Below, piece after piece: positions 8,182 to 28,664 of a stretch of DNA of 64,000 nucleotides. This DNA is from a virus (Duplodnaviria > Caudoviricetes), in the IMG/VR virus record IMGVR_UViG_2541047295_000015, positions 32,001-96,000 of that record. One strand, given 5' to 3'. Below the pieces are notes generated by a model, which saw only the letters and a list, made by a program, of their open reading frames with translations, made no database searches and was not told the origin of the DNA. Within the stretch, counting starts at the first letter, position 1. Every line of letters begins with the position of its first letter. A program made the position numbers and the translations under genes.

Positions 8182-8182
8182 A

Positions 8183-8360: not shown

Positions 8361-11300
8361 TTGAGAAATTATGAAATAAAAAATTATCCTTTAGTATTAG
8401 ATTTTAGTAACTATAGAATAAATAAAAGTCTCGTAGATTCATTTATTTATGATGAAAATGATACAAACACAGCAGTAATAACAGTAGAACTTAAAAATAA
8501 TGATAAATCAATTGATTTATCAGTTTATGATTACATAACTCTAAACATAAAAAAAAATGATGGAACAACAATTGATCAACAATGTAAGATCATAGATGAA
8601 TCTAAAGGAATAGTAGAAATAATATTTTCAAAACAAGCACTATTATGTTCAGGTCTAAACTCATTTCAAATAGCACTAATAAATGAAGAAAGTCAGATAT
8701 TCTCTCCAAAAGTTTTCTATAGAGTAGAAGAAGGCGTTTTAAATGATAGTGATATAGTAAGTTCAGATGAATACTCAGTTTTGATGATTCTTATATCTCA
8801 ATATAAAGATAGTTTAAAAGAACTGAAAGATTTAAAAATAAAAATAGAAAATCTTGAAATTACTATACTTAAAAATGAAGAATTAAGAGACTCAGCAGAA
8901 CAAGAAAGAATAGCCTCAGAAATTATTAGAAAAGATCAAGAAATTATTCGTCAAAATCAAGAAATAGAGAGACAAAAATCTATACAAGAAATGGAATCAG
9001 AAATTGATGATAAAATTACTGACATTCAATATGAATTTGATGAAAAAGCCCAACAAATAACTGATGATATCAATGAAACTAAAGAAAGTTTAATTGAAGA
9101 TATAACAAATACTAAAGATAATATAAATCAAGACATATTGACAACTAAAACTGATTTAATAAATTCAGTTAATTCTACCAAAGAAACTCTAGTTACAGAA
9201 GTAACAACAGTCAAAACTGACTTAACAAATTCATTTAATGAAACCAGAGATAATGTAATTGCTGATATTTCAACAACTAAAACTGATCTAATAAACTCAA
9301 TTAATTCTACTAAAGAAACTTTAACTACAGAAGTTACAACAGCCAAAACTGACTTAATTAATTCTGTAAATACATCTAAAGATACTATGGAAAATAAAGT
9401 ACAAGAAGCCATAGATGCGATTCCACCAAAAGACGAGTTGAAGGGTAAAGATGGACTTGGATTAGAGATAAAAGGTAGTGTAGATACTGTAGATCAGTTA
9501 CCAATAGACCCAACTATAAGCGATACTTATTTCGTTGGTTATGATCTATATATATATGATGGTGCTGAATGGAAAATAATAAAAGATTTAAGAGTTAAAG
9601 GAGATAAGGGTGATACTGGTTTAACAGGAAAAAGTATAGAGTTTATATGGGATAATACTCAGTTAGGTATTCGTCAAGAAGGATCAACTGAATATGTATA
9701 TGTAAATTTAAAAGGAGATACTGGAGAACAAGGATTATCTCCATATGATTTAGCAAAGTTAAATGGATTTGAAGGTACAGAATTAGAATGGTTAAATTCA
9801 TTAAAAGGATTGGACGGATTTACACCAACAATTGGAGGAAATGGTAATTGGTTTATTAATAATGTTGATACAGGACAATCCTCAATTGGGTTAAAAGGCG
9901 ATCAGGGAGATAAAGGTGATATTGGTATCACAGGAAAATCAGCTTATGATGTTGCTATAGAAAATGGATTTGAGGGAACAAAAGATGAATGGTTATTATC
10001 CTTAAAAGGTGAAGAAGGAGATACTCCATTAATAGGTGAAAATGGAAATTGGTTTATAAATGGAGAAGATACTGGTAAACAATCAAAAGGTGATAAGGGA
10101 GATATAGGAAGTGGTTTAGAAATAAAAGGATCTTTTGACACCATAAATGAATTACCATCAGAAGGAATAATTGGAGATGCTTATCTGGTACAACAGCACT
10201 TATATGTTTGGGACAAGATAAAGAAATGGGTGGATTGTGGTATAATTCAAGGCCCCCCTGGTAAAGATGGAGCTTCTACTTGGGATGACATATTAGACAA
10301 GCCAGAAACATTTAATCCTACAAAGCATACACACTTAATGAGTGATATAACAGGATTAAAATTGGATGCAGATACTGTCACATATAACAATAAAATTAGT
10401 AATTTAGATTCCATAAATGTTCAAAAAGCAATTGATGAATTAAAAGGGATTGTGGATAGTAAATCTGATTCTATTATGTATACCAAAATTATTGAGCAAA
10501 ATGAATGGAAACATACAAATGATTTGTACTCAATAGAAATTCCACATAATTTATCTTCTAAAAACTTATTTATTAGTATATTAAACAATGATACTAATAT
10601 AAATTTGATTTCTTCTTATAAGATAATTGATATAGATACAATTGAGATATACAATGACGAAGCAATTAATGCCACTGTTGTTGTTTTAGGAAATAGCTCT
10701 AATGTATCATATATACCAGTAATTGGAGACAATGGAAATTGGTTTATAAACAATGTTGATACAAAAAAAAGTTCTATTGGAATTACTGGTGAAAAAGGTG
10801 ATAAAGGGGAACAAGGAAATATAGGATTAACAGGTGATAATGGTAAATCAGCCTATGAAATTGCACTTGAAGATGGATTTGTTGGTTCTAAAGATGAATG
10901 GTTACTATCTTTAAAAGGTGATGAAGGTATAACACCGATGATTGGTGATAATGGTAACTGGTTTCTTGGAAATATTGATACAGGAAAAGTATCAAAGGGT
11001 GAAAAAGGTGATGTTGGAACTGGATTAGAAATAAAAGGAGCATTTGATACTGTAGAAGAGCTTCCTCAAGAAGGCAATACTGGTGATGCTTACTTAATTC
11101 AAAGACATCTATATATCTGGGATAACATAAAAAAATGGGTAGATTGTGGCGTAATTCAAGGTGAAAAAGGTGAAAATGGAACATCTAACTGGGAAAATAT
11201 ATTAAATAAACCAGACAAATTTAATCCAAGCAAGCATATTCATGCTATGGATGATATAGAAGGACTAAAGTTAAGTGCAGATACTGTTACATATAATAAT

Positions 11301-12674
11301 GAAACAAGTAATTTAAAAGCTGTAAATTTACAAAAAGCTATAGATGAATTAAAAAGTGAAATAGATACTAAATCTGAGTTAATGATTCATACTCAAAATA
11401 TAACATTAGATAATTGGTTAGAAAAAGATGATTTATATTATATAGAAATAAATCATAATCTCTCTTCTAAGAACTTATTTATTAGTATCTTAAATATTGA
11501 TACCAATATAAATCTAATAACTTCATATAAAATTATCAACGATAATACCATTAATATATATAATGATACGCCTGTTAATGCAAATGTTTTAGTAATATCA
11601 GACAATATAAACATAAATTATTTGCCAACTATAGGTGAGAATGGTAACTGGCATATCAATAATATTGATACAGGAAAAAGCTCAATTGGTAAATCAGGTC
11701 TAAAAGGTGATAAGGGAGACATAGGTTTAACTGGTGCTACTGGCAAATCTGGTATAACTCCAACGATTGGAAATAATGGTAATTGGTTTCTTGGTGATAC
11801 TGATACTGGTAAAAGTTCAATAGGGAAAACTGGTTCTAAGGGTGACACTGGTAAATCAGCCTATGAAATTGCACTTGAAGATGGATTTGTTGGTTCTAAA
11901 GAAGATTGGTTATTATCCTTAAAAGGCAATAAAGGAGACAAGGGTGATGTTGGCAATGAAGGAAAAACAGCGTATGATGTTGCACTTGAGGAGGGATTTG
12001 TTGGAACAAAAGAAGATTGGCTCAACTCATTAAAAGGAAATAAAGGTGATATTGGTATAACTGGTACAAATGGAGATTCAGCATATGAAATTGCATTAAA
12101 AAATGGATTTTCAGGTAATTCTGAAGAATGGTTAATTTCACTAAAAGGTGATAAGGGCGATATTGGTGTAACTGGTAAATCTGCCTATGAGATTGCATCT
12201 GAAAATGGATTTTTAGGTAATATTACAGAATGGCTAAGTTCTTTAAAAGGTAATAAAGGAGACAAAGGTGATTCTGGAGTATCAAATTGGAATGATATTA
12301 GTGGAAAACCTAGTTCTTTTAATCCCTCTTCTCATAATCATGGATGTACTTCTAACAAGTCTCCCACTAGCGGTTATATTTCATTAGGTTCAGATTTAGG
12401 AGGATTAATAATAGAATGGACTCAAATTAAATTATCATTCACAGGTGCTGATACCAAAAGAGGTGGTGGAAATTTACCTATAGCATTTCCTAATGCATGT
12501 ATTGGTTTATACAGTGCTATATCTTCAGCTGGAGATAATGCATGCTTTTCTCATGGAGTTGCAAAAGAAAGTGGCCTAACATCTACAAAGTTTGGTTATC
12601 ATGTTAAAGCAGCAGGTTCAGTCGCTGATATAGAAGGATCACTTACTTTATATATACTTGCAATTGGGTATTAG
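8361..12674 (+). CDS. Baseplate upper protein (BppU-like N-terminus)/collagen-like tail fibre, module 1
   Basis: N-terminal ENDTNTAVITVELK...KKNDG BppU-type domain; many GDKG/Gly-X-Y repeats, IGENGNWF and SAYEIALEDGF repeats; C-terminal GGLIIEW...LPIAFPNAC fibre tip. Confidence 0.75.
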   Translation: MRNYEIKNYPLVLDFSNYRINKSLVDSFIYDENDTNTAVITVELKNNDKSIDLSVYDYITLNIKKNDGTTIDQQCKIIDESKGIVEIIFSKQALLCSGLNSFQIALINEESQIFSPKVFYRVEEGVLNDSDIVSSDEYSVLMILISQYKDSLKELKDLKIKIENLEITILKNEELRDSAEQERIASEIIRKDQEIIRQNQEIERQKSIQEMESEIDDKITDIQYEFDEKAQQITDDINETKESLIEDITNTKDNINQDILTTKTDLINSVNSTKETLVTEVTTVKTDLTNSFNETRDNVIADISTTKTDLINSINSTKETLTTEVTTAKTDLINSVNTSKDTMENKVQEAIDAIPPKDELKGKDGLGLEIKGSVDTVDQLPIDPTISDTYFVGYDLYIYDGAEWKIIKDLRVKGDKGDTGLTGKSIEFIWDNTQLGIRQEGSTEYVYVNLKGDTGEQGLSPYDLAKLNGFEGTELEWLNSLKGLDGFTPTIGGNGNWFINNVDTGQSSIGLKGDQGDKGDIGITGKSAYDVAIENGFEGTKDEWLLSLKGEEGDTPLIGENGNWFINGEDTGKQSKGDKGDIGSGLEIKGSFDTINELPSEGIIGDAYLVQQHLYVWDKIKKWVDCGIIQGPPGKDGASTWDDILDKPETFNPTKHTHLMSDITGLKLDADTVTYNNKISNLDSINVQKAIDELKGIVDSKSDSIMYTKIIEQNEWKHTNDLYSIEIPHNLSSKNLFISILNNDTNINLISSYKIIDIDTIEIYNDEAINATVVVLGNSSNVSYIPVIGDNGNWFINNVDTKKSSIGITGEKGDKGEQGNIGLTGDNGKSAYEIALEDGFVGSKDEWLLSLKGDEGITPMIGDNGNWFLGNIDTGKVSKGEKGDVGTGLEIKGAFDTVEELPQEGNTGDAYLIQRHLYIWDNIKKWVDCGVIQGEKGENGTSNWENILNKPDKFNPSKHIHAMDDIEGLKLSADTVTYNNETSNLKAVNLQKAIDELKSEIDTKSELMIHTQNITLDNWLEKDDLYYIEINHNLSSKNLFISILNIDTNINLITSYKIINDNTINIYNDTPVNANVLVISDNININYLPTIGENGNWHINNIDTGKSSIGKSGLKGDKGDIGLTGATGKSGITPTIGNNGNWFLGDTDTGKSSIGKTGSKGDTGKSAYEIALEDGFVGSKEDWLLSLKGNKGDKGDVGNEGKTAYDVALEEGFVGTKEDWLNSLKGNKGDIGITGTNGDSAYEIALKNGFSGNSEEWLISLKGDKGDIGVTGKSAYEIASENGFLGNITEWLSSLKGNKGDKGDSGVSNWNDISGKPSSFNPSSHNHGCTSNKSPTSGYISLGSDLGGLIIEWTQIKLSFTGADTKRGGGNLPIAFPNACIGLYSAISSAGDNACFSHGVAKESGLTSTKFGYHVKAAGSVADIEGSLTLYILAIGY

Positions 12675-12702
12675 AATCTATAACTTCTAGAAGGAGGTAA
12701 AA

Positions 12703-13014
12703 ATGAGAAAGATATTTAAGATGGGTCTGAAAAAAGATTTAAAATCATTCAATGGATTTTATATAGAAGACATCCATAAAAATAATATACCTAAGTCTTA
12801 TATAAATATTGCAGAAGATCTTTGGAGTTATTTATTAGAACTAGGTGATTTTAAATTTATAGGAGATTATAAAACAAAAAAAGATTTATATACTGTTCAA
12901 GAAAAAGATGAGTTTGAAAAAATTATTCCAGATTCTTATTCTGAAAATAACATAGCCTTAGAAGATAGAATTTCTGCAATTGAACAAGCAATATTAGCCA
13001 TATTATTAAAATAA
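12703..13014 (+). CDS. Tail fibre assembly/chaperone-like protein
   Basis: Follows fibre; GFYIEDIH...I motif and C-terminal LEDRISAIEQA coil. Confidence 0.6.
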   Translation: MRKIFKMGLKKDLKSFNGFYIEDIHKNNIPKSYINIAEDLWSYLLELGDFKFIGDYKTKKDLYTVQEKDEFEKIIPDSYSENNIALEDRISAIEQAILAILLK

Positions 13015-13033
13015 TTGACTGGAGGTGAGTTAA

Positions 13034-13198
13034 ATGAACTCATTATATAACTTTCTACTTAATATGTGGAAAATTGGTAATATAGATGAAAAATATATAA
13101 ACACTATGTCATCTAATAAAATTATCACATCAGAGGAAAGAGATATGATAATCTCTACATCTAAAATAAAATGTAAAGGAGTAGATAATATTGGATAG
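13034..13198 (+). CDS. XkdX-like small tail chaperone, 54 aa
   Basis: RBS ggaggtga; MNSLYNFLLNMWKIGNIDEKYI...KIITSEERDMII. Confidence 0.6.
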   Translation: MNSLYNFLLNMWKIGNIDEKYINTMSSNKIITSEERDMIISTSKIKCKGVDNIG

Positions 13199-14327
13199 TA
13201 ATAAAATTTTAAAGTTACAGGCTGAAGATATAAAATATAATAATGTTATTAGTGGATTAAATTCCACTAATACTAAAGAAGCAATAGATGAATTAAGGAA
13301 TTTAATAAGGCAACCTGATTCTATCTATAGTGCAACATTAGACATTGATTTAAATGACTGGAAATTAAAAGATGATTTTTATTATAAATCTATAAAGCAT
13401 AACTTAGATTCTAAATGTTTATTGGTAAGCATAATAGAAAAAAACACACAAAATAGTTTATTGTGTTCATATAAAATAGTTGACAATGACACAATTGAAA
13501 TATTTAATGAAATTGTTATTAATGCAACTATAAATATAGTAGGTATCAACACAGATATAACACCTATTCCAAGTATAGGTGAAAATGGTAACTGGTTTAT
13601 AAATGGAGAAGATACTGGTAAGTCATCTAAAGGAAATAAAGGTGATATTGGCAATGAAGGAAAATCTGCATATGAAACATGGAGAGGTATATCTCAAAAT
13701 AAAGATAAAACTGTCCAAGAATTTATAGAGAGTCTAAAAGGGAGTAAAGGCGATACTGGGGTAACACCTTCAATCGGAAAAAATGGCAATTGGTTTATAG
13801 GTGAAAATGATACTGGTAAACCATCTAGGGGAGAAATTGGAGATTTAAATATTGACACAAACTTTAGCGAACTAGAAACTGAAAGTAAAAAAATTCTTGA
13901 AGCCATAAATGAAATTAATAAAAAAGCTGTAGATTCTAATGGAGATATAACTGGAGATATAGCTGTTGAATTAGCTATATTAAAAAATAACTATGCTATA
14001 CTTCTAAATAAAATGTTAGATTTTTCAATAGAAATGGATTTAGAACAAAATGCTACAATAGATGAAGCTGGATACTGGTATGATACATTAAAAGATAATA
14101 AAAATATAATAGCTATGAATGATTTAAAATTAGATACAATAGGAAAATGTATAAGGGGTATTTATGGAAGTGTAACATTTCGAAATATTGAGATTCCTTT
14201 TATATCCAATAAACTTAGATATATTCATGAATTAAATAATAACTCAATTGATAATATTGTAAGTCAAACTTATCCTAAAGATTCTACCCAAATTAATTTA
14301 GGAAAATATAAATATAAAATAAGATAA
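13191..14327 (+). CDS. Tail fibre adaptor (baseplate-attachment-like) of module 2
   Basis: Shares HNL..S..YKI.D..TI domain and IGENGNWF repeats with 8361..12674; precedes the large RCC1-repeat protein. Confidence 0.65.
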   Translation: MDSNKILKLQAEDIKYNNVISGLNSTNTKEAIDELRNLIRQPDSIYSATLDIDLNDWKLKDDFYYKSIKHNLDSKCLLVSIIEKNTQNSLLCSYKIVDNDTIEIFNEIVINATINIVGINTDITPIPSIGENGNWFINGEDTGKSSKGNKGDIGNEGKSAYETWRGISQNKDKTVQEFIESLKGSKGDTGVTPSIGKNGNWFIGENDTGKPSRGEIGDLNIDTNFSELETESKKILEAINEINKKAVDSNGDITGDIAVELAILKNNYAILLNKMLDFSIEMDLEQNATIDEAGYWYDTLKDNKNIIAMNDLKLDTIGKCIRGIYGSVTFRNIEIPFISNKLRYIHELNNNSIDNIVSQTYPKDSTQINLGKYKYKIR

Positions 14328-14331
14328 AGAG

Positions 14332-17300
14332 GTGTTTTTATTGATAAAAAAAACAAAATTATTTCAAAGAGGAAAATATTTTAATAATGATAGCATAAAT
14401 TTAAATAAGTTTGATAGAACTTATGATTCATTTAATTTTGTAGGTTTTTTTACTGGATATGCAGATGTTAGTTTTGCATTAGACAAAAATAATAATGCTT
14501 ATGCTTGTGGAAACAATACTGAGTACATGTTAGGTTTAGGTAAAGATACTAAAACTGTTAAAACATTTACAAAACTCCCAGTAAGTAATGTCAAAATGAT
14601 AGCTGTTGGTACAAATCATGCCTTATTATTAACTAATGATGGGTTTGTCTATGCAGCAGGTAGAAATGACAAAAACCAATTCGGAATTGGTAAACTTCCA
14701 GATACAATATATTATGAGTTTACTAAATTATCTCTACAAAATGTAAAATATATAGCTTGCGGAGAAGGTTCTTCTTATTATATAGATAATGATAATTTGG
14801 CATATTCATGTGGCAATAATAATTATGGTCAATTAGGTTTAGGAACAAATGCTGATATAAAAGATACACTTAATAGAGATACATTTACAAAAATTAATAT
14901 AGATAATGTTAAATCGATTTATACATCTTTATATAGTGCATATATAATTAAAAATGATAGTACATGCTATTCTTGTGGATTTAATGGATCTGGACAACTT
15001 GGTTTAGGTGATAATAATAATAGAGATATATTTACAAAAATTAATATAGACAATGTAAAAAAAATAAGTGTTGGTTCAAATCATACAGCTTTATTAAAAG
15101 ATAATAATGAACTATATTTTACTGGATATAATTCTAATGGAGAATATGGAGATAATACTATTATAAGTAAAAATATATTTACTCTATCTAACGAAAAAAA
15201 TATACTAGATGTAAATTGTTCATATAATCATACTTTTATTCTAAAAAATGATGGAAGTTTATATAGTGCTGGTTACAATAAATATGGAGAATCTTTAATA
15301 GATAATAAATACGATATTATAAATACAATAACATACACTAAAGTAACAGATAATATAAAAAGTATCTATAGTAGTAAACAACATTCATTTCTAATAGATA
15401 AAGATAATAATATTCTAGTTGGTGGGTTAAATAACTTTAATCAATTAGGATGCTTTTTTAATGAAATGATTATATATTCTCCTACTAAGTTTAATTTTCA
15501 TAATACAGATAATATAAAAAATATATTTAAATATAAAGATAAAATAATGTTAACAAAAGATAGCTGTGAAATACAAAATGTAAAACTATATGATAATTTT
15601 CATGACTATAAACAGATTCTTTTAACAGATTATACTATGTTTATATTATTAAATAACGGAAATTTATACGCATGTGGATATAATATTAATGGACAACTTG
15701 GATTAGGAGATACAAAAAATAGGTCAATATTCTGTAAAGTTCCTGTTGATAATGTAAAAGAAGTTTACTCTGATAGGCTTGGATATACTACATTTATAAT
15801 GAAAAATGATGGTTCTATATGGTCTTGTGGATTAAATACTAGTGGTCAATTAGGGGTAGGAGATAAACTTAATAAAAGCTTATTTCAATTTGTTAATGTT
15901 AGTAATATACAACAAATATGCATCGAATCTAATTATACAATGATTTTAACAACTGAAGGAACTCTTTTAGGCAGTGGTAATAATTCATATGTTTTAAAGA
16001 ATAATAATGTTTCTATTTTTACAAATCAAATGGATAATTTAAGTATAAAAATAAAAAAAATCGCATCTTATGATAATAATTTTTATTTAATTGAAGATTC
16101 TACTCATTATTTATATGTTAAAGGTTTAAATAATTATTATGAACTAGGACTTGATAATACAAGTACTTATTCATCTTTTGTTAAAGTATCTAATTTATAT
16201 TATAGTAATAGTAGCCTGCCTTGTGTAATAAAAGATGTTATTCCAGTATATAAAGGCTGTGTAGTAATTAATATGAATGATAGAATGTTTACAACTGGTT
16301 ATAGTTATATGGATTACACAGCATCAAATTCTGATAATACTTCTTCTGTAAAATGTTACCGTTTTGGAACTAAAAGAGCTTACAATGCTGTTGTTGATTT
16401 TTCAACAAGATTCTTTGAAGACTATAATAGATTAAACCAACAATATGATTCAAAATTTTTATCTAATAATGCAATAGGATTAATAAAAGCAAAAGATTCA
16501 AATAGTTATTGGGGATGTTTTTTTGAAGCGGATTACTATGACCCTCAGTTTAATGCTGACAATATAGCTGTTTTAAACTATTTCATATTGTATTCAGATA
16601 GTAGTGGTCTTAAAATTCGTCCTAATCAATATAATAAACTCAATTATGGTTATATAGAATCATATCCTATAAAAAATGTAAAAGATATTATAAGTACACA
16701 AACTAGTTCTATAATAATAGATAGCAATAACAACATATATTGTATTGGAATAAATTATTATAATAAATTTGGAATAGGAAACACAGGACATCATGCTTAT
16801 ACAAACAGATTAGTTAATATAACAGACCAATATAATTCTTATATTACTATGGATGAGATAAAAAAAATAGAAACATCTGACTATGCAACATTTATATTAA
16901 AAAAAGATGGTTCTCTATTTTCATGTGGCGATAATGAATATGGTCAATTAGGTTTAGGAGATACAATTAATAAAAATGAATTTACACAAGTTCCGATAGA
17001 TGATGTAAAAGATATAATTATTAGTAGTGCTACTTCTTTTGTAATAAAAAATGATAATACTATATATTCATGTGGTAAAAATGATAAAGGTCAGTTAGGG
17101 TTAAATGATACTAACAATAGAAATATATTTACTGAAATTGATACTAGTTTTAATACTTCTCCCATAAAAAAAATATCATGTGCACCTAGTAATAGTTTCT
17201 TATTATTTGAAAATGGATTAGTATACTGCTGTGGAGATAATACTCATGGTCAATTAGGAATTGGTACTTTTGGAAATAACGAAAATAAATTGAAATTTGA

Positions 17301-19521: not shown

Positions 19522-19540
19522 ATAATAATAGGAGGTAAGA

Positions 19541-19879
19541 ATGTTAAAAATAGACAAAAGAAAAATACATGATATTAAAAATAGAAAAGAAAATGACATT
19601 AAGTTTAATATTATAGATACAAGTCAAATAACTCAAAACAATGACATTACAGATTTAATGTTGGCAACTGCTGAAATATGTGAAATGGTATTGGATAGCC
19701 AATCAAAACCATCTACCATGTCATTAAAAAATATAAAATTAAATGAAGGAGGAAATAGTATGGCAGCAATTTATGTAGGATTAATAGAAAGAGGTTTAAA
19801 AACAATTGACCAAGTACCTGTAAAATACAGAGAAGAGGTAAGAAAAATGTGTGAGGCACTAGAAATTCCGTTATCATAG
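19541..19879 (+). CDS. RBP chaperone with CD1375-like C-terminal domain; probable nested start at 19760
   Basis: MAAIYVGLIERGLKTIDQVP motif preceded in frame by RBS gaaggagg. Confidence 0.65.
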   Translation: MLKIDKRKIHDIKNRKENDIKFNIIDTSQITQNNDITDLMLATAEICEMVLDSQSKPSTMSLKNIKLNEGGNSMAAIYVGLIERGLKTIDQVPVKYREEVRKMCEALEIPLS

Positions 19880-19990
19880 AACTTTAAGAGTTCTTTTTTT
19901 GTGCTCAAAATAGAGAGTTACATTAGTAACTCTCTAACTTAAAGAAGAAGGTGATAAATTGTTAAATGAAGATGCAGTAAAAAAATTAAA
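19878..19990 (+). repeat. Cassette junction A: terminator + second hairpin + conserved RBS/start (aagaaggtgataaattgttaaatgaagatg)
   Basis: agaact-ttaag-agttct+T7; tagagagttac-atta-gtaactctcta; start region nearly identical to junctions B and C. Confidence 0.8.
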
Positions 19991-21701
19991 AAATGTACCT
20001 AGTAATACTAGTGATAAAATTGAAAAAGTTAATACAAATATAGGAGATACAACACTACTTGAAACAACAGATAAAACTAGTATTGTAAGTGCAATTAACG
20101 AGGTAAAAACTAGTATAGATAGTATAGAGACAACAGCAGATAAAACAACTATAAAAGATACAGATAATTTATTTGAAAGCGACAATGTAGAGGGAGCATT
20201 AAAAGAACTTTTTCAAAATGTCGATAATGGGAAAAACCTAATTGCTAGTGCCATTACCGACAAGGGTATTAATACTAGCAAAGATGATACTTTTCAAAAA
20301 ATAGCTGAAAATATAAATAAATTAGTAAAACTTAACCATCTACCTATATTAAGTAATATAACTGTATCAAATATTAAAGTAGGAGGCTCTTATACACTGA
20401 ATTATACTTGTACAGATGAAGATAAAGATACATTAATTCATAGACTTAAAATAGGAGATAATGATTTTATTTCTATTAATCCTAGTAATAATGACAATAA
20501 TTTTACTTATATAGGAAATGGACTAAGTCATAATACCAGATATACTTGTTACATAGAAGTAAGTGATGGTGATAAAATAGTATTATCTAATCCATTCACA
20601 ATAACTATACCAAAAGCAGAGGTATATGGAGTTAAAATTGATGAAAGTAACAGTAATCCATTAACTTGTGTGACTTACATTGAAAGTTCTCAAGGAGTAA
20701 TACCTGCCAATTCAACTGGTTATGGAGGATGGTCAAATATATACCCTTTTAAAGATATAAAACCTTGTGGTTTTAAGTCTGGAAAGTTATACAAATATAT
20801 TAATCCACAAAATTTTTCTAAATATTTAGATGGAAGTGATGTCATTGGAGATGTTGACGTAATGATTGAGTTTCCAAAAATATATTGGAAGTTTACCACA
20901 ACAACTAATGGTTATGAAATAAGAATATCAGAAGCTAGAATTGATAATAATTATATATGCATGGCTCATACTGTTGGTTCTACTGAAAAAGAAAAAATAT
21001 ATATTGGTGCATATTTAGGGTATAATATTGATGGCAAATTAAGAAGTGTTTCTGGCTATACACCTACTGTGTCAAAAACTATTGGAGAATTTAGATTACA
21101 TGCCCAAGCTAATGGATCTGGGTATCAACAATATAATTATTATTGTATGTTAATGTTACAAATATTATATTTAATAATGTACAAATCTCTTAATAGTCAG
21201 TTACAACTTGGGTTTGGATATACTGATGAAACAGAGGAGTATATGACTACAGGAGGAACAAATTATAATGGAATGATTTATGGGTCTAATGGCAAGAAAC
21301 AAATTAAATTTTTAGGAATAGAGGATTTGTGGGGGAATTATAATCAATGGGTAGATGGGTTTTATAGTGATAATGATTTAAACATGATGATAAGTGATAA
21401 TTCAATATTTAATGATAAGGGAACTGGATATATAAATCGAGGTCGTGGTGCAAATCAAGAATTTAATGGTTCTATAAGTAGAGTTCAAGCTACTAATCAT
21501 GGTGGATTTATAATAAAATCATCTGATAATGGAGCAAGTGATAAATATTATTGTGATGCTGGTGCCTTATTTTCCAATTCTGTACCAATAACAGGAGGAT
21601 TTAAGGGGATTGGGTCAGTTGCAGGAATTTTTCTTTTCATGGTTAGTTATTCTTCTTCATACTCTGATAATAAATTTACTTCTAGGTTAGTGTATATGTA
21701 A
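19959..21701 (+). CDS. Tail fibre module 3 with C-terminal C-type-lectin (Mtd/DGR-target-like) domain
   Basis: MLNEDAVKK start; DVMIEFPK, IYIGAYLG, GIEDLWGNYNQWVDG and terminal GG...AGIF...SRL motifs typical of CLec/FGE-type fibres. Confidence 0.7.
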   Translation: MLNEDAVKKLKNVPSNTSDKIEKVNTNIGDTTLLETTDKTSIVSAINEVKTSIDSIETTADKTTIKDTDNLFESDNVEGALKELFQNVDNGKNLIASAITDKGINTSKDDTFQKIAENINKLVKLNHLPILSNITVSNIKVGGSYTLNYTCTDEDKDTLIHRLKIGDNDFISINPSNNDNNFTYIGNGLSHNTRYTCYIEVSDGDKIVLSNPFTITIPKAEVYGVKIDESNSNPLTCVTYIESSQGVIPANSTGYGGWSNIYPFKDIKPCGFKSGKLYKYINPQNFSKYLDGSDVIGDVDVMIEFPKIYWKFTTTTNGYEIRISEARIDNNYICMAHTVGSTEKEKIYIGAYLGYNIDGKLRSVSGYTPTVSKTIGEFRLHAQANGSGYQQYNYYCMLMLQILYLIMYKSLNSQLQLGFGYTDETEEYMTTGGTNYNGMIYGSNGKKQIKFLGIEDLWGNYNQWVDGFYSDNDLNMMISDNSIFNDKGTGYINRGRGANQEFNGSISRVQATNHGGFIIKSSDNGASDKYYCDAGALFSNSVPITGGFKGIGSVAGIFLFMVSYSSSYSDNKFTSRLVYM

Positions 21702-22077
21702 AAAATTAGTTATTTTAGCATGAATATATAATTCTAAACGATAAATTTATCTAGGTAATAATATAAAACATTTGTTTATAATGAGTATTTAAAAATACTA
21801 TGCAAGATAAAAAGTTATTTTAAGAATGTTATAATCAAAAAAACATTTTACATTATTTATATGTTTGCAAAATATGGATGTGATATAAATGAATTTATTA
21901 ATACTTTTTAAAATGTATAAAAAAACATTAATCATCTGTTAGTAATTCTATAAAGTTAATACAAAAGAAATTTAAGGATTATTTAGATTTGATTGTTGAA
22001 TCTAAATAGCAAAGTTTATAAGAACAGAAATTATATAGAAAGCTAAGATATATTGTCGTGATCAAGAAAGACTTAGT

Positions 22078-22200
22078 AAGAACTATATTATATAGTTCTT
22101 TTTTTATTGAAAGAAACTAAGGACTATACATAAATATAGTCTTTTAAATAAAAAAAGAAGGTGACAAATTGTTAAATGAAGATGTGGTAAAGAAATTAAA
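22078..22200 (+). repeat. Cassette junction B: terminator + second hairpin + conserved RBS/start
   Basis: aagaactata-tta-tatagttctt+T; aaggactata-cataaa-tatagtcttt; aagaaggtgacaaattgttaaatgaagatg. Confidence 0.8.
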
Positions 22201-24355
22201 AAATGTACCTAGTGATACTAATTCAGAAATTAATAAAAAAACAACTATTAATGATGCAGAAGAATCTGAGACTACAACGTATTCATCAAAAAAAATAAAA
22301 AGCTTAGTAAATACCATAGAAAATACAGCTAATAAAGTAACTATAGAAGATATAGCTAATAATTTTACAAGTGACAATGTAGAGGGAGCACTAGATGAGC
22401 TTTTTCAATCTGTCAGTAATGGGAAAGAATTAATCGCTACTGCTATTACTGACAAAAAAGTACCAACTAATAGTAGTGATACATTTCAAACTATGGCAAG
22501 TAATATTAGTAGTATAAAACAAATGCCAGATATGCCTGATGATGTTGAAGAAGTTTGGTGTTTTTACAATGATTCAAGTGTAAATTCAGTATGTGTAGAT
22601 TCTAAAGATAATATTTATAATGCTAGTAGTGATATGTCAGTTAAGAAAATATCTCCATTAGGAAAAGAAATATGGAGATTTACAAAGCATACACATTTTG
22701 TGAATTCAGTAACAGTAGATTCTGATTTTAATGTTTATAGTGGTGGGGTTGACAGAATCTTAAGAAAAATATCTTCTTCTGGAGATGAAATATGGTCTTT
22801 TTCAGGTTTTAAAAACAATATAACATCTATATGTATTGATTTAGATAATCATATAATAGTTGGAATTGCAGATAGTAGTCTGGTTAAAGTATCATATGAA
22901 GCGACAAAAATATGGGAATACACAGGAAACACTAACAGTATATTATCAGTAGATGTAGATTCCGCTAATAATTATTATATTGGAAGTGCTGATGAGAGTA
23001 TAAAAAAATTATCTAAAAATGGATCATTAATATGGAGTTATATGGACAACATGGGTTCAGTTTATTCAGTGTGTATTGATTCTAACAATAATCTAATAAG
23101 TGGTGGAAACGATAAGATTATAAGAAAGTTTAATCCTAATGGCGAGATAATCTGGAAATCTATAAGCCTTTCTACTATATTTTCTTTAACAGTTAATAAT
23201 GAAAATGAAATATATTGTGGATGTGATGATAAAACTATAAAAAAGATATCTCATAATGGATTAAAAATATATGAATTTATGGTACACACTAATCGAGTAG
23301 AAACTGTAACTTTAGATAGTAAAAATAACATACTAAGTGGTAGTAGTGACAATACCTTAAAAAAATTTCAACAAAATTTAGGTATTCTAGTTACAAAAGA
23401 TAACCAAAGCGAAATACATAAGGTAACTAAATTAGGAACTCTTGTAGAAGAAGTATCTCCTTATCCTGATAATATATGGACAACTAATCTTGATGTTGAC
23501 ATAATCATGTCAACATGTATAGATTTCAATGATAATATAATAAATTGTGATGGATTTGATAGATCAGTAATTAAAACATCACCTTCAGGTGATCTTATCT
23601 GGAAATATAATTTTTTATTTAGTTTAGGTATATATTCAGTATGTACTAATAATGACGGTTTAGTGTACTGTGGAGGCATCAGCAATCTAATGTTTTTATC
23701 TGATCCTGATGTTGTTTCTAATGAATTGCCTTTACATTCAGATATCATTATTAGTCTAGCAATTGATAATAGTAATAATTTAATAAGTGGTAGTTATGAT
23801 AATACTATTATAAAAACATCATTAGAAAGAGACGATACATTCATGAAGTCACTCTGGACATTTACAGGACATACTGATCATATTACTGTAGTTACAGTTG
23901 ATTTACATGATAATGTGTATAGTGCTAGCAATGATAAAACAGTAAGAAAAATATCTTCTGATGGCGTTGAAATATGGAGATTTATAGGGCATACTGATTC
24001 TGTAAATTCAGTATGTGTAGATTCTAAATATAATGTATATAGTGCTAGTAATGATAAAACAATAAGAAAAATATCTTCTGATGGCGTTGAAATATGGAAG
24101 TTTTCAGGTCACACTGATTCTGTAAACTCTGTATGTGTAGATTCAGAGTTTAATATTTATAGTGGCGGATCTGATAGTACAATAAGAAAAATAGCCAATA
24201 ATGGTGTTGAGATATGGAAATCAACATCTTTTACTAAGTCAATTAAATCAATATTATTAGATTCATCTAATAATATTGTTATAACTTATAATCTTAATAC
24301 TATAAGTAAATTGAAAAATACACATGTATTACAAAAAGTAGCTTATTATAACTAA
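22169..24355 (+). CDS. Tail fibre module 4 with WD40/beta-propeller repeats
   Basis: MLNEDVVKK start; many WxFxGHTDSVNSVCVD...SASNDKTIRK repeats. Confidence 0.75.
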   Translation: MLNEDVVKKLKNVPSDTNSEINKKTTINDAEESETTTYSSKKIKSLVNTIENTANKVTIEDIANNFTSDNVEGALDELFQSVSNGKELIATAITDKKVPTNSSDTFQTMASNISSIKQMPDMPDDVEEVWCFYNDSSVNSVCVDSKDNIYNASSDMSVKKISPLGKEIWRFTKHTHFVNSVTVDSDFNVYSGGVDRILRKISSSGDEIWSFSGFKNNITSICIDLDNHIIVGIADSSLVKVSYEATKIWEYTGNTNSILSVDVDSANNYYIGSADESIKKLSKNGSLIWSYMDNMGSVYSVCIDSNNNLISGGNDKIIRKFNPNGEIIWKSISLSTIFSLTVNNENEIYCGCDDKTIKKISHNGLKIYEFMVHTNRVETVTLDSKNNILSGSSDNTLKKFQQNLGILVTKDNQSEIHKVTKLGTLVEEVSPYPDNIWTTNLDVDIIMSTCIDFNDNIINCDGFDRSVIKTSPSGDLIWKYNFLFSLGIYSVCTNNDGLVYCGGISNLMFLSDPDVVSNELPLHSDIIISLAIDNSNNLISGSYDNTIIKTSLERDDTFMKSLWTFTGHTDHITVVTVDLHDNVYSASNDKTVRKISSDGVEIWRFIGHTDSVNSVCVDSKYNVYSASNDKTIRKISSDGVEIWKFSGHTDSVNSVCVDSEFNIYSGGSDSTIRKIANNGVEIWKSTSFTKSIKSILLDSSNNIVITYNLNTISKLKNTHVLQKVAYYN
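23850..24215 (+). repeat. Near-identical 120-bp tandem coding repeats (WD40 blades)
   Basis: tagtgctag.aatgataaaac..taagaaaaatatcttctgatggcgttgaaatatgga recurs at a 120-nt period. Confidence 0.75.
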
Positions 24356-24372
24356 TTTTAGGAGGAAATAGA

Positions 24373-24705
24373 ATGCAAAAATACTTAACAGGATTGGAAC
24401 ATAAGGAAGGTAACATTTATAAAGTGAATTTAATACATAATATGCCATTTGATAAAGTTAATGGCTTAGGAAAATCAGCTCAAGAATTGGAATTGAATGG
24501 TGTTCTAATTGACACATTAATTGAAGCTGAACATAAGGAAGGGTTTGCATCTATTATGTATGTAGATAAGACAACAAAAGAGATTACATATGAGTATGTA
24601 GAAATACCATTGACACCAGAACAAGAAGCTCTAAAGAAAGTCAAAGAATTAGAATTAGAAAATGCTAATACAAACTACGCACTAATGATGGGAGGATTAA
24701 TATAA
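24373..24705 (+). CDS. Tail fibre chaperone (module 4)
   Basis: HNMPFD..GLGKS.QEL...ITYEYVEIPLTPE motif; RBS ggagga. Confidence 0.65.
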   Translation: MQKYLTGLEHKEGNIYKVNLIHNMPFDKVNGLGKSAQELELNGVLIDTLIEAEHKEGFASIMYVDKTTKEITYEYVEIPLTPEQEALKKVKELELENANTNYALMMGGLI

Positions 24706-24842
24706 TGTTAGGATTTGAAAAAATAAAATACTATTATAATAATAACATGTGGACTAAAGAAATGGTTAAAAATGCAGTACTTAAAGAAAAGATAACAGCG
24801 AAGGAATATAAAGAAATAATAGGCGAGGACTATATAGCATAG
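24705..24842 (+). CDS. XkdX family protein, 45 aa
   Basis: MLGFEKIKYYYNNNMWTKEMVKNAVLKEKITAKEYKEIIGEDY, typical XkdX pattern; RBS ggagga. Confidence 0.8.
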   Translation: MLGFEKIKYYYNNNMWTKEMVKNAVLKEKITAKEYKEIIGEDYIA

Positions 24843-24945
24843 TTCTTTTTTTATTGAAATAAACTGAGAAGCATATTTATATGTAGTTCTTTAAATAAAA
24901 AAGAAGGTGATAAATTGTTAAATGAAGATGTAGTAAAAAACATTA
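24826..24945 (+). repeat. Cassette junction C: terminator + imperfect hairpin + conserved RBS/start
   Basis: atagttctttttttattgaaa.aaact...taaataaaaaagaaggtgataaattgttaaatgaagatg matches junction B over about 100 bp. Confidence 0.8.
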
Positions 24946-27242
24946 ATAGATTAGATAAAGAGCAGGATGACATTAATTTAGAACTTAGTAAAAAAGCAAG
25001 TAAGGAAGATTTAGAAAAAGTAATACAAAATGGTACTAATGTAGCTGTATCTAAAGATATTTCAACAAGTGATTGGATACTAGAAGAAAGTACATATACA
25101 ACTATAATTGAACATAACCTTGTAACTAGAAAAGTACTTATAAGCTTAATTGATAAAACTACTAATAACAATGTATTTTGTTCATATAAAATTTTAGATG
25201 ATAATAGGATAAAAGTTTTTAATGAAACCAATGATGAGCTTGAATGTATAGTTGTAAATGGAAACTCAGCTATAAATATGACTTCAGCAACTATTGATGA
25301 TAAGAGAAGTACTGAAACAACCACTTATTCTTCTATAAAGATAGAAGCTTTATTAAAATCCTTAGAAAATAAAATTGATGATATAGAAAATCTCAAGGAA
25401 GTTGACAATATAAAATGTAGTACAGATATAGGAGAATATACTATAGAAAATAGTAAGAAAGGTTATCTAACTAATTTTAATATAGAAGGAAAGACTCTAA
25501 TTGATTTATGGGGAAAAACTAGTTCAGATTTTTCTTTATGGAAAACCACTTTTTTAGATGGAAAAATAAACATACTAACAGAAAATGATATAAGATATTC
25601 TAATTTTTTTACTACCAATTATACTTTATATAAACCAGATACTATATATACAATAATAGTTGATGTTGATAAAAATACTTTACCTAGTACAAGTGGAATA
25701 TATATTCATAGTTTAGGAGAAGAAAATTCAGTATTTATTCCTAATCTGACAAATATAGCTATATTAGGAGGAGTGATTGGGAAATTCAGATATACATTTA
25801 CAACAATATCAGACTTAAGTGATTGTAATGTGGCCTTAAGGAGTGTTTTAGATAATGATACACTTGCATCTGGTTATGAAGTAAGTTTGAAAATTACCAT
25901 ATTAGAAGGAAATTATACAGATATTAATATAAATTACTCTAATGAACTATTAAGTGTTGGGCAAAGAGATAAAGTGGAGCTTTTAAGTTATCCATATAGT
26001 GGAATTAATATCTTTAATAAGAATGCCAATTTTAAAGATAATTATATTTTACAATATCTTAATGGAGAGGAACTTATTTCTGAGGCTAGTAATCATAAAT
26101 ATACATTAGACTATATAGAAATAGAACCAAATACAGAGTATACTTTTTATAATTGTAGTAGAAATATTTGTTGGTATGATATAAATAAAAGTTTTATTCC
26201 AACACCATTAAATGAAAGAATAATAGGAGATAAAGATATTTTTTATGTTGCTAGAAGCCCTAAAAATGCAAAGTATCTAAGAGTTACTATAATAAAAGAT
26301 TTGCATGATGATGGTAATAAAACAATTATAACTAAAGGAAATAAATATGATAAAAAGAAAATTCCTTATACATTAAGAAGCTTACCAAATGGAATAAGAG
26401 ATAAAATAGTCTACAAAAATGGTTCATATAAACTAATACAAAGATGTGAAGAAATAGTTTTTAATGGTAATGAAAATTGGATAGAAGTTCATGGAATGTA
26501 TGAGTTTAGATTAAATTTAGATATATCTGTATTAAGATTAGATATGTCTAAGTTTGTAACTAACTTATACAAGCAATCTCATGTAGACTATATATATAAT
26601 GTTCAAACTGAATCAGCATTATCTATATCAACAGAAAATGGAATAGGTGTAATAGATATAGTAGATACTTCAATATCTCCTTTTAACATTGCTAACTTTA
26701 AAGAAAAATTAAAGAAAAATCCTTTGAAAATAATTTATGAATTAGAAACACCAAGAGAAATTAAACTTAGTCTACTAAATTTGGAGCAATATGATAATCA
26801 AACTAGATTTATTTGTAACTCAGGCATTGCGATACCAAATATTAGTTTTGAAAGGACACAAAATTTAGGTAGCCATATAGAAGTTATTAGAGAGAATTTA
26901 AAATCAATAATTAAAACTGAAAGTAATATTGATTTTAAATTTATAAATGGATGGGATAAAGTGTGGCAATCAGCTACTATTACAAAGGTAGGAAAGTATT
27001 TATTTATAAACATGATTGTAACAAAAAATACATCAGCTACTGTTTTAGAAGAAGCAATAATTAAATTACCTTTAGGAATATCAAGACAAAACTATTCTTG
27101 TCCAGTTATGAATTCTTCTTGTGAACAAGTTGACACTGTAGGGATAGCTTGTGTAAATAATACTATACTAATGTTAACTCCAGGTCATGATATTACGAAT
27201 AAAGGAATTTTAATTAGTGTTGTTGTAAATTTGGAGGTCTAA
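24915..27242 (+). CDS. Tail fibre/receptor-binding module 5
   Basis: MLNEDVVK start; HNL..SYKILDD domain; IEGKTL, LRSLPNG.RDKI and IYELETP motifs common in clostridial phage fibres. Confidence 0.7.
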   Translation: MLNEDVVKNINRLDKEQDDINLELSKKASKEDLEKVIQNGTNVAVSKDISTSDWILEESTYTTIIEHNLVTRKVLISLIDKTTNNNVFCSYKILDDNRIKVFNETNDELECIVVNGNSAINMTSATIDDKRSTETTTYSSIKIEALLKSLENKIDDIENLKEVDNIKCSTDIGEYTIENSKKGYLTNFNIEGKTLIDLWGKTSSDFSLWKTTFLDGKINILTENDIRYSNFFTTNYTLYKPDTIYTIIVDVDKNTLPSTSGIYIHSLGEENSVFIPNLTNIAILGGVIGKFRYTFTTISDLSDCNVALRSVLDNDTLASGYEVSLKITILEGNYTDININYSNELLSVGQRDKVELLSYPYSGINIFNKNANFKDNYILQYLNGEELISEASNHKYTLDYIEIEPNTEYTFYNCSRNICWYDINKSFIPTPLNERIIGDKDIFYVARSPKNAKYLRVTIIKDLHDDGNKTIITKGNKYDKKKIPYTLRSLPNGIRDKIVYKNGSYKLIQRCEEIVFNGNENWIEVHGMYEFRLNLDISVLRLDMSKFVTNLYKQSHVDYIYNVQTESALSISTENGIGVIDIVDTSISPFNIANFKEKLKKNPLKIIYELETPREIKLSLLNLEQYDNQTRFICNSGIAIPNISFERTQNLGSHIEVIRENLKSIIKTESNIDFKFINGWDKVWQSATITKVGKYLFINMIVTKNTSATVLEEAIIKLPLGISRQNYSCPVMNSSCEQVDTVGIACVNNTILMLTPGHDITNKGILISVVVNLEV

Positions 27243-27245
27243 AGT

Positions 27246-27581
27246 ATGGATAAAATGAAATTTAAAATAATAAAAGAGCATAATTTCTCAAAAGAAGAAA
27301 TTGACAACATAGAAATTGACAATTTTTTTATTACAGGTAATGGACAATTATGGACTCCTTTAATAAGCAAAGAAGGAGAGCTAATTAAGACAGGTGAACA
27401 ATCTTATAACGAATGGTTAGAATTACAAAAGAATCCACCTAATCCAGAACCATCAATTGAAGAAATAAATGCAAATAAAATCACAGTTTTAATAGAAAAT
27501 CAAAAGGAGCAAGATAATCTTTTAATAGATAATGCTTATAGAATCGCTATGTTAGAACTTAACACAAACAATGTGTTATAA
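27246..27581 (+). CDS. Tail fibre chaperone (module 5)
   Basis: Position; KTGEQSYNEWL and LLIDNAYRIAMLEL motifs. Confidence 0.6.
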   Translation: MDKMKFKIIKEHNFSKEEIDNIEIDNFFITGNGQLWTPLISKEGELIKTGEQSYNEWLELQKNPPNPEPSIEEINANKITVLIENQKEQDNLLIDNAYRIAMLELNTNNVL

Positions 27582-27607
27582 AATTATAAAAACTTGGAGG
27601 AAAGAAT

Positions 27608-27778
27608 ATGTATAATATTTTAAAAAGAATGATTGAGCAAAAGAGCTTTGATACTAAAGAGAAATTACAAACTAAGTTGGATGTATTTTATGCTATGAAT
27701 AGGATAAAAGAAAGTGAGTACACAGAGTTAACGACTTTATTAAATAAAGAAGGAACAGTAGTAGAGCCAACAATATAG
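27608..27778 (+). CDS. Small tail chaperone, 56 aa
   Basis: RBS ggagga; MYNILKRMIEQK...KLDVFYAMNRIKESEYTEL. Confidence 0.7.
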   Translation: MYNILKRMIEQKSFDTKEKLQTKLDVFYAMNRIKESEYTELTTLLNKEGTVVEPTI

Positions 27779-27851
27779 GTTCTTTTTTTATGTTTAAATT
27801 TAGAGGGCTGACTAATCTCAGCCTTTTTATTTATTGAAAGGAGTGGTAATT

Positions 27852-28664
27852 TTGAACATAAAAACATTAACAATCCATGCAGGTCATAATCCAGATTATA
27901 AGGTCGGCTCTGGAGCAGTAGGTAATATAAAAGAATCTACAGAGGCAAGAAATGTACTAAAATATCTAATATCTTTAACTCAAAAAGAGTGTAAAGTATA
28001 TGATTGTACTTGTAATGATGGAACTTCTCAGAGTGATATATTGAATAAAATTATAGCTAAATGTAATTCATATAACTCAGATTTAAATGTAAGTGTTCAT
28101 TTTAACTCAGGTGGAGGTAGAGGTGTAGAAGTCTTAGTATATAATTTAAATGACAAAGAAACCGTTGAAATAGCTTCAAGAATTTGTGAACAAATAACAA
28201 AAACTTACCATGCTAAATGGGATAAAGCTTTTAAAAACAGAGGTGTCAAAGAAAAGAAAACTCTAGCATTTTTAAGAAGAACAAAAGCAAAATCACTTTT
28301 AGTTGAATGTTGCTTTGTAGATACAGATGATACTAAAAATTATAATGCTAAAGATATGGCCATAGATATTGCCGAAGGAATATTTAATAAACCTATAAAT
28401 CAAACACAGGAGGAAAAAATGAAATATACAATAGTTTATGAAGGAGAAGTTGATAAAGCTATAGCTAATGTAATGGCCATAAATTATAAATCTTATGAAG
28501 TCTATGTATGTGAGTTAAAAAATTACATACCTGGCCATTGTCAAAACCTTTATGTAATAGGTTCAGCCAGTGACAAAATTAAGACTAGTGAAAGATTCAC
28601 TAAGTTACAAGGTGATGACAGATGGGCTACACTTTATAAAGTATTAGATTTTATAGGGAAGTAG
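27852..28664 (+). CDS. Endolysin, N-acetylmuramoyl-L-alanine amidase (Amidase_3, CD27L-like)
   Basis: HAGH, E, SVHFNS and LVECCFVD motifs; RBS aaaggag before TTG at 27852. Confidence 0.9.
   Translation: MNIKTLTIHAGHNPDYKVGSGAVGNIKESTEARNVLKYLISLTQKECKVYDCTCNDGTSQSDILNKIIAKCNSYNSDLNVSVHFNSGGGRGVEVLVYNLNDKETVEIASRICEQITKTYHAKWDKAFKNRGVKEKKTLAFLRRTKAKSLLVECCFVDTDDTKNYNAKDMAIDIAEGIFNKPINQTQEEKMKYTIVYEGEVDKAIANVMAINYKSYEVYVCELKNYIPGHCQNLYVIGSASDKIKTSERFTKLQGDDRWATLYKVLDFIGK

Follow-up and report, generated by a model that had tools for sequence, protein, structure and literature searches.

A modular multi-unit tail-fibre locus in a phiCD211-like large siphophage of Clostridioides, probably expanded by homologous recombination at shared junctions

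The window analysed here is a 64,000-nucleotide (nt) stretch of the virus record IMGVR_UViG_2541047295_000015 from IMG/VR (positions 32,001 to 96,000 of that record), and our subject is its tail-fibre locus, in which five fibre units with different tips follow one another. DNA searches and gene order assign the window to a big siphophage (phage-plasmid) of Clostridioides resembling phiCD211/phiCDIF1296T. Its G+C content is 24-30%, and every gene between 4.5 and 31 kb lies on the plus strand. An earlier reading of the letters alone (the sequence-only reading below) had proposed a locus of several receptor-binding protein (RBP) genes built as cassettes with common adaptor blocks, and our comparisons support this. 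We think it likely that the window carries a hypervariable host-recognition locus which was expanded by homologous recombination at the junctions between cassettes.

Organisation of the locus

The relatives recovered by DNA searches are phiCD211/phiCDIF1296T, AR1086-1, LIBA6276/2945, ES-S-0107-01, ES-S-0173-01 and pCD1602_4; phages like phiCD211 are reported from about 5% of C. difficile genomes. The order shared with them is Dit, Tal, BppU_N fibre, RCC1 protein, CD1375-family gene, MLNED adaptor and, further on, amidase, glucosaminidase, holins and Xer recombinase; by this synteny and by the DNA similarity of its flanks the locus belongs to the tail-fibre loci of phiCD211-like (cluster B) phages. 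Both flanks are kept in all nine records of relatives at 72-91% identity; the interior is mostly unrelated. Tal and the amidase are 19.65 kb apart in the window and 5.4-13.0 kb apart in seven relatives (13.0 kb in phiCD211, phiCDIF1296T, AR1086-1 and ES-S-0173-01, about 10 kb in the LIBA phages, 9.1 kb in ES-S-0107-01 and 5.4 kb in pCD1602_4). Near-identical Logan contigs of four public sequencing runs (X1-X4, X1 being the probable source run) were aligned to positions 8100-28050.

The large open reading frames (ORFs), named here by their first position, lie where the sequence-only reading had placed them (Table 1). Its count of five fibre genes holds for units with different tips; the large ORFs themselves number six, as 13191 is the adaptor of the RCC1 unit. 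Small ORFs follow four of the five units, as had also been noted, and the chaperone role then given to them is read from gene position alone.

Table 1. Features of the tail-fibre locus and its flanks (window coordinates; aa, amino acids)
Feature	Coordinates	Strand	Description
Left flank, conserved	4571..8356	+	Dit, 557 aa (4571-6244); Tal, 645 aa (6244-8181); 57-aa ORF
Fibre 1, 1437 aa	8361..12674	+	BppU_N anchor, helical stalk, collagen, two stalk units, gp53-like end
Two small ORFs, 103 aa and 54 aa	12703..13198 (starts 12703, 13034)	+	Putative assembly helpers, by position only
Anchorless adaptor, 378 aa	13191..14327	+	C-terminal half of the 692-aa fibre of the family
Giant RCC1-repeat protein, 1729 aa	14332..19521	+	Candidate receptor-binding protein, diffocin type
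CD1375-family protein, 112 aa	19541..19879	+	Putative helper of the RCC1 unit
Junction 1	19878..19961	+	Terminator-like hairpin 19878-19894 and T run, hairpin 19911-19936, ribosome site, TTG
Module 3, 580 aa	19959..21701	+	MLNED peptide, DNVEGAL block, FN3-like domain, C-type-lectin head (Mtd/TaqVP type)
A+T-rich gap without ORFs, about 360 nt	21702..22060		Where module 3 helpers would be expected
Junction 2	22061..22171	+	Two hairpins, ribosome site, TTG; about 35 nt match the 3' end of an XkdX gene
Module 4, 728 aa	22169..24355	+	MLNED peptide, ETTTYSS and DNVEGAL blocks, two beta-propellers
Module 4 putative helpers	24373..24842	+	110-aa ORF (24373) and 45-aa XkdX-family ORF (24705)
Junction 3	24808..24917	+	Terminator-like hairpin, degenerate second hairpin, ribosome site, TTG
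Module 5, 775 aa	24915..27242	+	MLNED peptide, Ig-like unit, ETTTYSS block, CBM-like domain(s), C-terminal RBP head
Module 5 putative helpers	27246..27778	+	111-aa (27246) and 56-aa (27608) ORFs; phrog_8852
Pre-lysis double hairpin	27762..27830	+	Second hairpin is a canonical terminator
Right flank, conserved	27834..30837	+	Amidase 27834, glucosaminidase 28676, two holin-like ORFs, Xer-like tyrosine recombinase 29899 (Pfam)

Fibre 1 and the RCC1 unit

Fibre 1 starts with a member of the BppU_N family (Pfam PF10651; aa 31-149, E-value 7e-11, 42.5 bits against a cut-off of 23.1). A helical stalk of about 215 aa with 22-aa repeats comes next, then collagen-like triplets; at aa 666-885 and 963-1169 the protein has a pair of attachment-protein-type stalk units, and it ends in a gp53-like domain (aa 1347-1437, E 2.2e-07, Pfam). 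Repeats D1-D10 lie in this gene. The 692-aa fibre of the relatives is matched by aa 1-360 only (41% identity), and all that lies past residue 360 is a 1077-aa collagen/gp53 extension. The 13191 product consists of an Ig-like stalk unit and the C-terminal domain that precedes RCC1. It corresponds to aa 415-692 of the phiCD211 fibre (BLASTP, E 4e-33) and to positions 539-691 of the 691 positions of phrog_13479. Since 8361 keeps residues 1-360 and 13191 supplies the C-terminal half, a cassette appears to have been inserted into the ancestral fibre gene. Family searches with the two small ORFs at 12703 and 13034 gave no match.

Fibre 1 also contains a 909-nt internal duplication (10260-10559 versus 11169-11468, with neighbouring pieces, within positions 10067-11800). 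The X3 and X4 contigs step back by 1734 nt here, from 11800 to 10067, and further on omit 135 and 342 nt, which suggests that the number of repeats in fibre 1 varies among strains.

The giant 14332 product matches RCC1/RLD (PF25390, E 2e-185) and, over its full length, phrog_7220. It is present in every relative but pCD1602_4. The 19541 product belongs to NF040910 (34.5 bits against a cut-off of 22.5) and is 71-79% identical in all relatives. The pair thus has the layout of a diffocin-type RBP unit, in which a very large multi-propeller protein is followed by a CD1375-family gene.

Modules 3-5

The AlphaFold2 model of the module 3 head (aa 130-580), built from a 40-sequence alignment, has a pLDDT (predicted local distance difference test score) of 94.6. 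In Foldseek it matches TaqVP (5vf4, E 1.7e-10) and Mtd (1yu4, E 1.4e-4) with a probability of 1.00 at 11-15% identity. These are variable proteins of diversity-generating retroelements (DGRs), and the C-type lectin tip proposed for 19959 is accordingly right. Module 3 has 840 homologues, mostly in Bacillota prophages, including P0001 at 97% identity. On its 3' side lie 468 nt free of ORFs; for the part at 21702-22060, six-frame translation gave no ORF and BLAST no detectable relative, and it is little changed in the X2-X4 contigs. A fossil DGR at 21560-22010 was considered and rejected: the lectin fold is real, but RVT_1 had no match in the genome, which is 99.98% complete, so that a reverse transcriptase is lacking, and the gap holds no repeat of the 3' end of module 3 that could serve as a template repeat.

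Module 4 matches WD40 and PQQ_2 in Pfam and 2ymu in PDB (E 3e-48), and is 43% identical to the head of a fused 1182-aa fibre of pCD1602_4, where its two small ORFs also have counterparts (85% and 76% identity). The second of these, 24705-24842, is an XkdX protein (PF09693, E 1.5e-16, 60.5 bits against 23.5; TIGR01669, 29.0 against 28.2).

Module 5 matches phrog_6782 over its full length, and 776-aa proteins 92% identical to it (P0122-P0126) are common in C. difficile. Its model is poor overall (pLDDT 60), and the last ~105 residues (pLDDT 70-88) were used alone for the fold match. They form the head of the "fifth type" of tip assigned to 24915, and their predicted fold resembles RBP heads from the lactococcal phages bIL170, TP901-1 and p2 and from PSA, a Listeria phage (Z 10.3-8.2; 10.3 to 2fsd and 10.2 to 6r5w). 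Matches to CBM4/22-like domains (Z 6-7.5) fall on low-confidence parts of the model and are a hint only. The other tip folds were borne out by Pfam: BppU_N/collagen/gp53-like in 8361, RCC1 in 14332 and a WD40 propeller in 22169.

The pattern of the split ancestral fibre is repeated at module 5: the 633-aa fibre of phiCD211 is equivalent to aa 146-719 of module 5 without the adaptor, which in that phage lies 2.2 kb upstream, before another head and two helpers. The ORFs at 27246 and 27608 have counterparts (69-86% identity) after the module-5-type fibre in phiCD211, AR1086-1 and ES-S-0173-01. Besides the CD1375 and XkdX families, the small ORFs have PHROG matches only, or none.

A common stalk toolkit

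The mosaic sharing of protein blocks noticed earlier is real. In BLASTP, modules 3 and 4 are 53% identical over residues 1-129 (E 5e-33), modules 4 and 5 match with E 1e-07, 13191 matches 8361 in two stretches (E 5e-57 and 7e-52) and 24915 with E 7e-15. Aligned together (alignment A3), these regions consist of four pieces: an N-terminal peptide MLNEDxVKKLKNVP..., an optional Ig-like unit (HNL...YKI.D..I), a linker ETTTYSS.KI and an end DNVEGAL..L...V..GK. The pieces build the MLNED adaptors, the start of 13191 and the two internal units of fibre 1. [quoted passage not shown] The homology covers the stalk and the RBP-binding end of gp67, with 35% identity for aa 4-155 of module 5 (tblastn). The N-terminal baseplate-binding domain of gp67 was not found in the MLNED proteins, as the match starts at about residue 131-153. 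The MLNED proteins begin at this very point, with a stop in the reading frame 8 codons upstream of their TTG. Because the A3 pieces match gp67 ~131-368, we regard modules 3-5 as attachment-protein stalks that lack the N-terminal part and are fused to a head.

Adaptor (106-207 aa) and head are encoded by separate genes in phiCD211, in LIBA6276 and in a second prophage of the same genome (contig C21, locus L012), and phiCD506-type small phages and plasmids carry, at 88% identity, a 180-nt piece of the module 3 adaptor (20027-20207). These two observations point to a stalk toolkit which is shared across phage types.

Summed contig depth over 20027-20207 is several-fold higher in X1, X3 and X4, and this piece is therefore presumably carried by several elements per cell. 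The second prophage (C21:69671-72700) encodes an RCC1 giant (1551-aa frame) and a CD1375-family protein. It has the same junction with 2 mismatches, and a separate 106-aa MLNED adaptor, 82% identical to that of module 3, in front of a head. This prophage is a likely recombination partner.

Junctions between the units

The window holds three copies, and no more, of a 30-mer that spans the ribosome site and TTG start (19945, 22155 and 24901; 0 mismatches, 0 copies expected by chance). Each copy precedes a TTG-started MLNED(A/V)VK gene, in agreement with the common start of modules 3-5 in the sequence-only reading. The similarity between two of the junctions extends upstream: repeat D17 (22061-22155 versus 24808-24902; 95 nt, 77% identical) contains the terminator hairpin. 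The double-hairpin layout which had been described for all three junctions and for the region before the lysin is confirmed by folding at 19878 (z -3.86), 22078 (z -2.78) and 27762 (z -2.1) and is weak at 24826 (z -0.85). A strict terminator scan flags only 27802-27827, the other stems being too A+T-rich for its rule.

Junction 1, both hairpins included, is kept in nine relatives. The stem of its second hairpin is conserved and the loop varies; one stem pair is seen as U-G, U-A and C-G, which lends slight weight to a selected RNA or DNA structure there. The second-hairpin sequence is unlike among the three junctions of the window, and an Rfam search of 8000-31500 returned no family for the hairpins. 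RNAalifold also pairs TTATCAT (19874-19880, at the end of the CD1375-family gene) with GTGATAA (19952-19958) in the ribosome-site region. We treated this pairing as a chance one; it is invariant in the nine relatives and thus without covariation, and junctions 2 and 3 do not have it.

A consensus promoter scan gave fewer sites than shuffled sequences and no convincing promoter in the gap. The short A+T-rich terminators may be leaky; together with the TTG starts they would then reduce the amount of distal fibres made. A search for the junction word located a single copy in each of 18 IMG/VR contigs, in each of 3 metagenome contigs from JGI, and in each of two other species of the genus.

Natural variants and their break points

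The content of units is unlike in every relative. All of them except pCD1602_4 have the 692-aa BppU_N fibre followed by RCC1, the CD1375-family gene, junction 1 and one MLNED gene. Arrays of several units are usual in this family; phiCD211 and ES-S-0173-01, for instance, have three to five. Two MLNE-type fibres in tandem were found in L019 and pCD1602_4, and three only in this window and in X2. The latter run comes from another study and carries another species label; one of its contigs (27.7 kb) is colinear with 11873-27977 and has modules 3, 4 and 5 in this order.

Comparison of relatives for cassette break points had been set beforehand as the test of the cassette proposal, and the insertions and deletions do concentrate in two places, the junctions and the adaptor/head boundary. 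Gain or loss of cassettes at conserved junctions is supported by X3 and X4. Their contigs match module 3 at ~96% identity and pass from 22088 straight to 24814, so that exactly cassette 4 and its two small ORFs are skipped; in the contig alignments, both ends of this absence lie inside repeat D17. Another case is pCD1602_4, in which an in-frame fusion links the BppU_N fibre to an adaptor with propeller of the module 4 type, and RCC1 is absent. There, the last helper gene ends in a join to a junction with 19 codons (MLNEDVVKKLKNVPNDTSN) and a stop codon, and the pre-lysin double hairpin is part of the same join; this remnant is a deletion scar. The junction after the XkdX gene of pCD1602_4 is itself a mosaic, with a first hairpin of the type of junctions 2 and 3 and a second hairpin of the type of junction 1 (the mosaic junction and the scar are at composite coordinates 8151-8275 and 9452-9535 of pCD1602_4, L004/L005).

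Other break points fall inside the genes. Similarity to phiCD211 and ES-S-0173-01 stops at 20043, 84 nt past the start codon of module 3, and resumes at 25375-25378; X2-X4 share a 33-nt in-frame insertion at 20040/20043, the point where this similarity stops. At the adaptor/head boundary of module 5, X2 has ~1.8 kb extra between 25495 and 25422, and X3 diverges after 25415. Overall, break points scatter across ~150 nt around the start codon, and some lie within coding homology at 25375-25495. Neither module 3 nor module 4, used as a single-protein query against IMG/VR, gave anything useful.

Flanking genes

Nucleotide identity of the left flank is 86-91% to ES-S-0173-01 and pCD1602_4 and 72% to phiCD211, and its genes carry the phiCD211 annotations "minor tail protein" and "tail protein". 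The right flank is 82-91% identical in 9/9 relatives. Tal has a sub-threshold match to Peptidase_S74, the intramolecular chaperone of endosialidases (aa 522-585, E 8e-4), a faint hint that the central fibre may cleave itself.

Origin and function of the array

We propose the following scheme. One fibre would be anchored to the tail tip by its BppU-type N-terminal domain. The other units would be the RCC1 giant with the 13191 adaptor and the CD1375-family helper, and the three MLNEDxVK fibres. Every unit would be made from one stalk toolkit, each stalk with a different receptor-binding head and most with small helpers of their own. The junction (end of the helper gene, terminator, hairpin, ribosome site, TTG and the first 20-30 codons) would serve as a homology arm, and so would the conserved adaptor/head boundary. 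Cassettes could then be inserted, deleted or split there when phages resident in or infecting the same cell, or repeats within a single genome, undergo homologous recombination, and such events would have yielded the three tandem MLNED cassettes of this window. General homologous recombination is the best explanation of the variants because break points are scattered, hairpins differ, no significant inverted repeats were found at the locus, and the recombinase is fixed in all relatives. We infer that all the fibre proteins are on the virion, with each head binding a different host surface structure.

Several points weigh against this scheme. The MLNED fibres and 13191 have no recognisable anchor domain (no BppU_N), module 3 has no helper genes, and what precedes each MLNED gene is a terminator-like hairpin and no evident promoter. 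The X1-X4 contigs are assemblies, blind to rare variants, which puts within-population recombination outside their reach; gain and loss are not distinguishable for any of the events.

Some of these ORFs (13191, module 3, the distal MLNED fibres) could be passengers, recent or decaying and left out of particles. An ancestral fibre gene was split, and 13191 is its downstream half; after module 3 come 360 nt of non-coding DNA together with a fossil XkdX 3' end; remnants do persist, as in pCD1602_4; and the hairpins in front of the MLNED genes fit such a role as well. Decay is however at odds with the independent X2 assembly, which keeps the ORF order at ~96-98% identity, and with the six ORFs themselves, all of which stay open for 378-1729 codons at a genomic G+C content of 27%, where stops arise easily. 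Furthermore, the heads of modules 3 and 5 have the intact close relatives listed above (P0001 and P0122-P0126), and orphan-head genes (the 633-aa fibre) are conserved in phiCD211, AR1086-1 and IMG/VR contigs. We therefore consider passengers unlikely.

A bolder extension of the recombination scheme would make the junction a selected portable "plug", common to C. difficile myophages and to medium and big siphophages. The plug would set the dose of each accessory fibre by controlled read-through and direct frequent exchange of cassettes among prophages of one cell, and lysogens would continually emit particles with varied heads, all docked on the elongated, repeat-bearing fibre 1 by the N-terminal peptide of 14-23 residues. 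We offer this as a speculation with a rather small chance of being correct.

The array may also resemble a site-specific cassette system of the integron or shufflon kind, with the 29899 recombinase cutting at the junction (at GTTAAAT or at the palindromic second hairpin, for example) and excising, capturing or reordering cassettes at high frequency. The cassettes are indeed co-oriented, seemingly promoterless and parted by hairpin-forming repeats; the start region TTGTTAAAT has a GTTRRRY-like heptamer, a tyrosine recombinase is encoded 2 kb downstream, and the ends of the presence/absence of cassette 4 lie in a repeat. The sequence-only reading had named this enzyme as a candidate catalyst, a role that our comparisons do not support. 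Its orthologue is found after the holins in every relative, single-MLNED ones included, so its place is fixed whatever the number of cassettes. With the integron-integrase model TIGR02249, whose cut-off is 265 bits, it reaches 27.7, and it falls far below the XerC and XerD cut-offs. Phage-plasmids need a Xer-type enzyme for multimer resolution. The break points, moreover, lie ~70-90 nt upstream of the TTG in X3/X4, 57 nt downstream of it in pCD1602_4, 84 nt downstream at 20043 and within the gene at 25375-25495; the second hairpin differs among the three junctions. Four lysis genes stand between the array and the recombinase, unlike in an integron, and, unlike in invertible fibre loci and shufflons (Mu Gin, P1 Cin, R64), all genes have the plus orientation and inverted repeats are lacking. 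A site-specific system is thus very improbable.

Finally, a short-read assembler could have chained cassettes of different prophages through the identical 30-mers, the genome being a 114-contig draft, the second prophage sharing the junction and the Logan contigs of the probable source run breaking at 19806/20048 and 23972/24934, but mis-assembly is ruled out for practical purposes by the single X2 contig, which holds the same module order from 11873 via junctions 1-3 to 27977, and by the X3/X4 contigs, which tie module 3 directly to module 5.

Significance

Modular multi-RBP loci are already known, and this locus, as a probable product of homologous recombination between cassettes, is a well-documented further case; in concept it adds one more example to the familiar modular evolution of tail fibres. 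Its chief use is as an entry point to receptor recognition by C. difficile siphophages, as narrow host range and poor knowledge of siphophage RBPs hamper C. difficile phage therapy. The locus offers a natural collection of five or more head types that share a single adaptor scaffold, there are natural variants that differ by exactly one cassette, and the junctions are already used in nature for exchange. Therefore two questions become testable: (i) which head recognises which S-layer type or wall polymer and (ii) whether one particle carries several heads. The attachment-protein stalk appears to be a common currency across the morphotypes of C. difficile phages and diffocins.

Comparison with known systems

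The nearest known system is the tail-tip region of phiCD211/phiCDIF1296T-like phages (cluster B; PMC5786514, PMC12671070), which has the same order from the tape measure gene to the Xer-like recombinase and flanks 72-91% identical to ours. The window differs from it in that the ancestral 692-aa fibre is split by the 1077-aa extension and two helper ORFs, and in that three MLNED genes, each fused to a head, take the place of one. The lectin and propeller heads are absent at the DNA level from the published phiCD211-like phages, and the locus is 6.6 kb longer here than in any of them.

In phiCD508, the likeness is to the gp67/gp68 pair: gp67 ~131-368 is the part that aligns with the MLNED adaptors, with 13191 and with fibre 1's internal units, whereas the N-terminal 130 residues that should bind the baseplate are missing from the adaptors described here. 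Adaptor and head form one polypeptide in modules 3-5, as against two genes in phiCD211 and the C21 prophage, and the particle is that of a non-contractile siphophage with a BppU-type anchor. The RCC1 giant and the CD1375-family gene mirror the RBP unit of diffocins (RtbL/RtbM/CD1375) in gene layout. RtbM is an RBP of ~200 kDa with several propellers (reviewed in PMC13324602), known from the diffocin work of Gebhart (2012 and 2015) as cited in that paper, and similarity to it has been reported for phiCD211-type phages (PMC5786514). The S-layer protein SlpA is the general receptor of C. difficile phages (PMC12680318, PMC10100898).

The module 3 head has the same fold as Mtd (Bordetella phage BPP-1) and TaqVP, although here the genome encodes no reverse transcriptase and no template repeat is adjacent. 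Among branched multi-RBP systems with conserved anchors are the four-tailspike clusters of the CBA120 type and the BppU-BppA-BppL baseplates of the lactococcal phages TP901-1 and Tuc2009. The BppU_N anchor of the latter is present in our locus too. Klebsiella phages with two or more depolymerases (PMC13579863) likewise have tandem RBP genes with conserved 5' parts and unrelated 3' heads, which in those phages are swapped by recombination. The locus described here differs from branched multi-RBP phages in its host, a Gram-positive bacterium with an S-layer, and in its repeated element, which extends beyond the coding sequence to include the non-coding terminator, the hairpin, the ribosome site and the TTG start.

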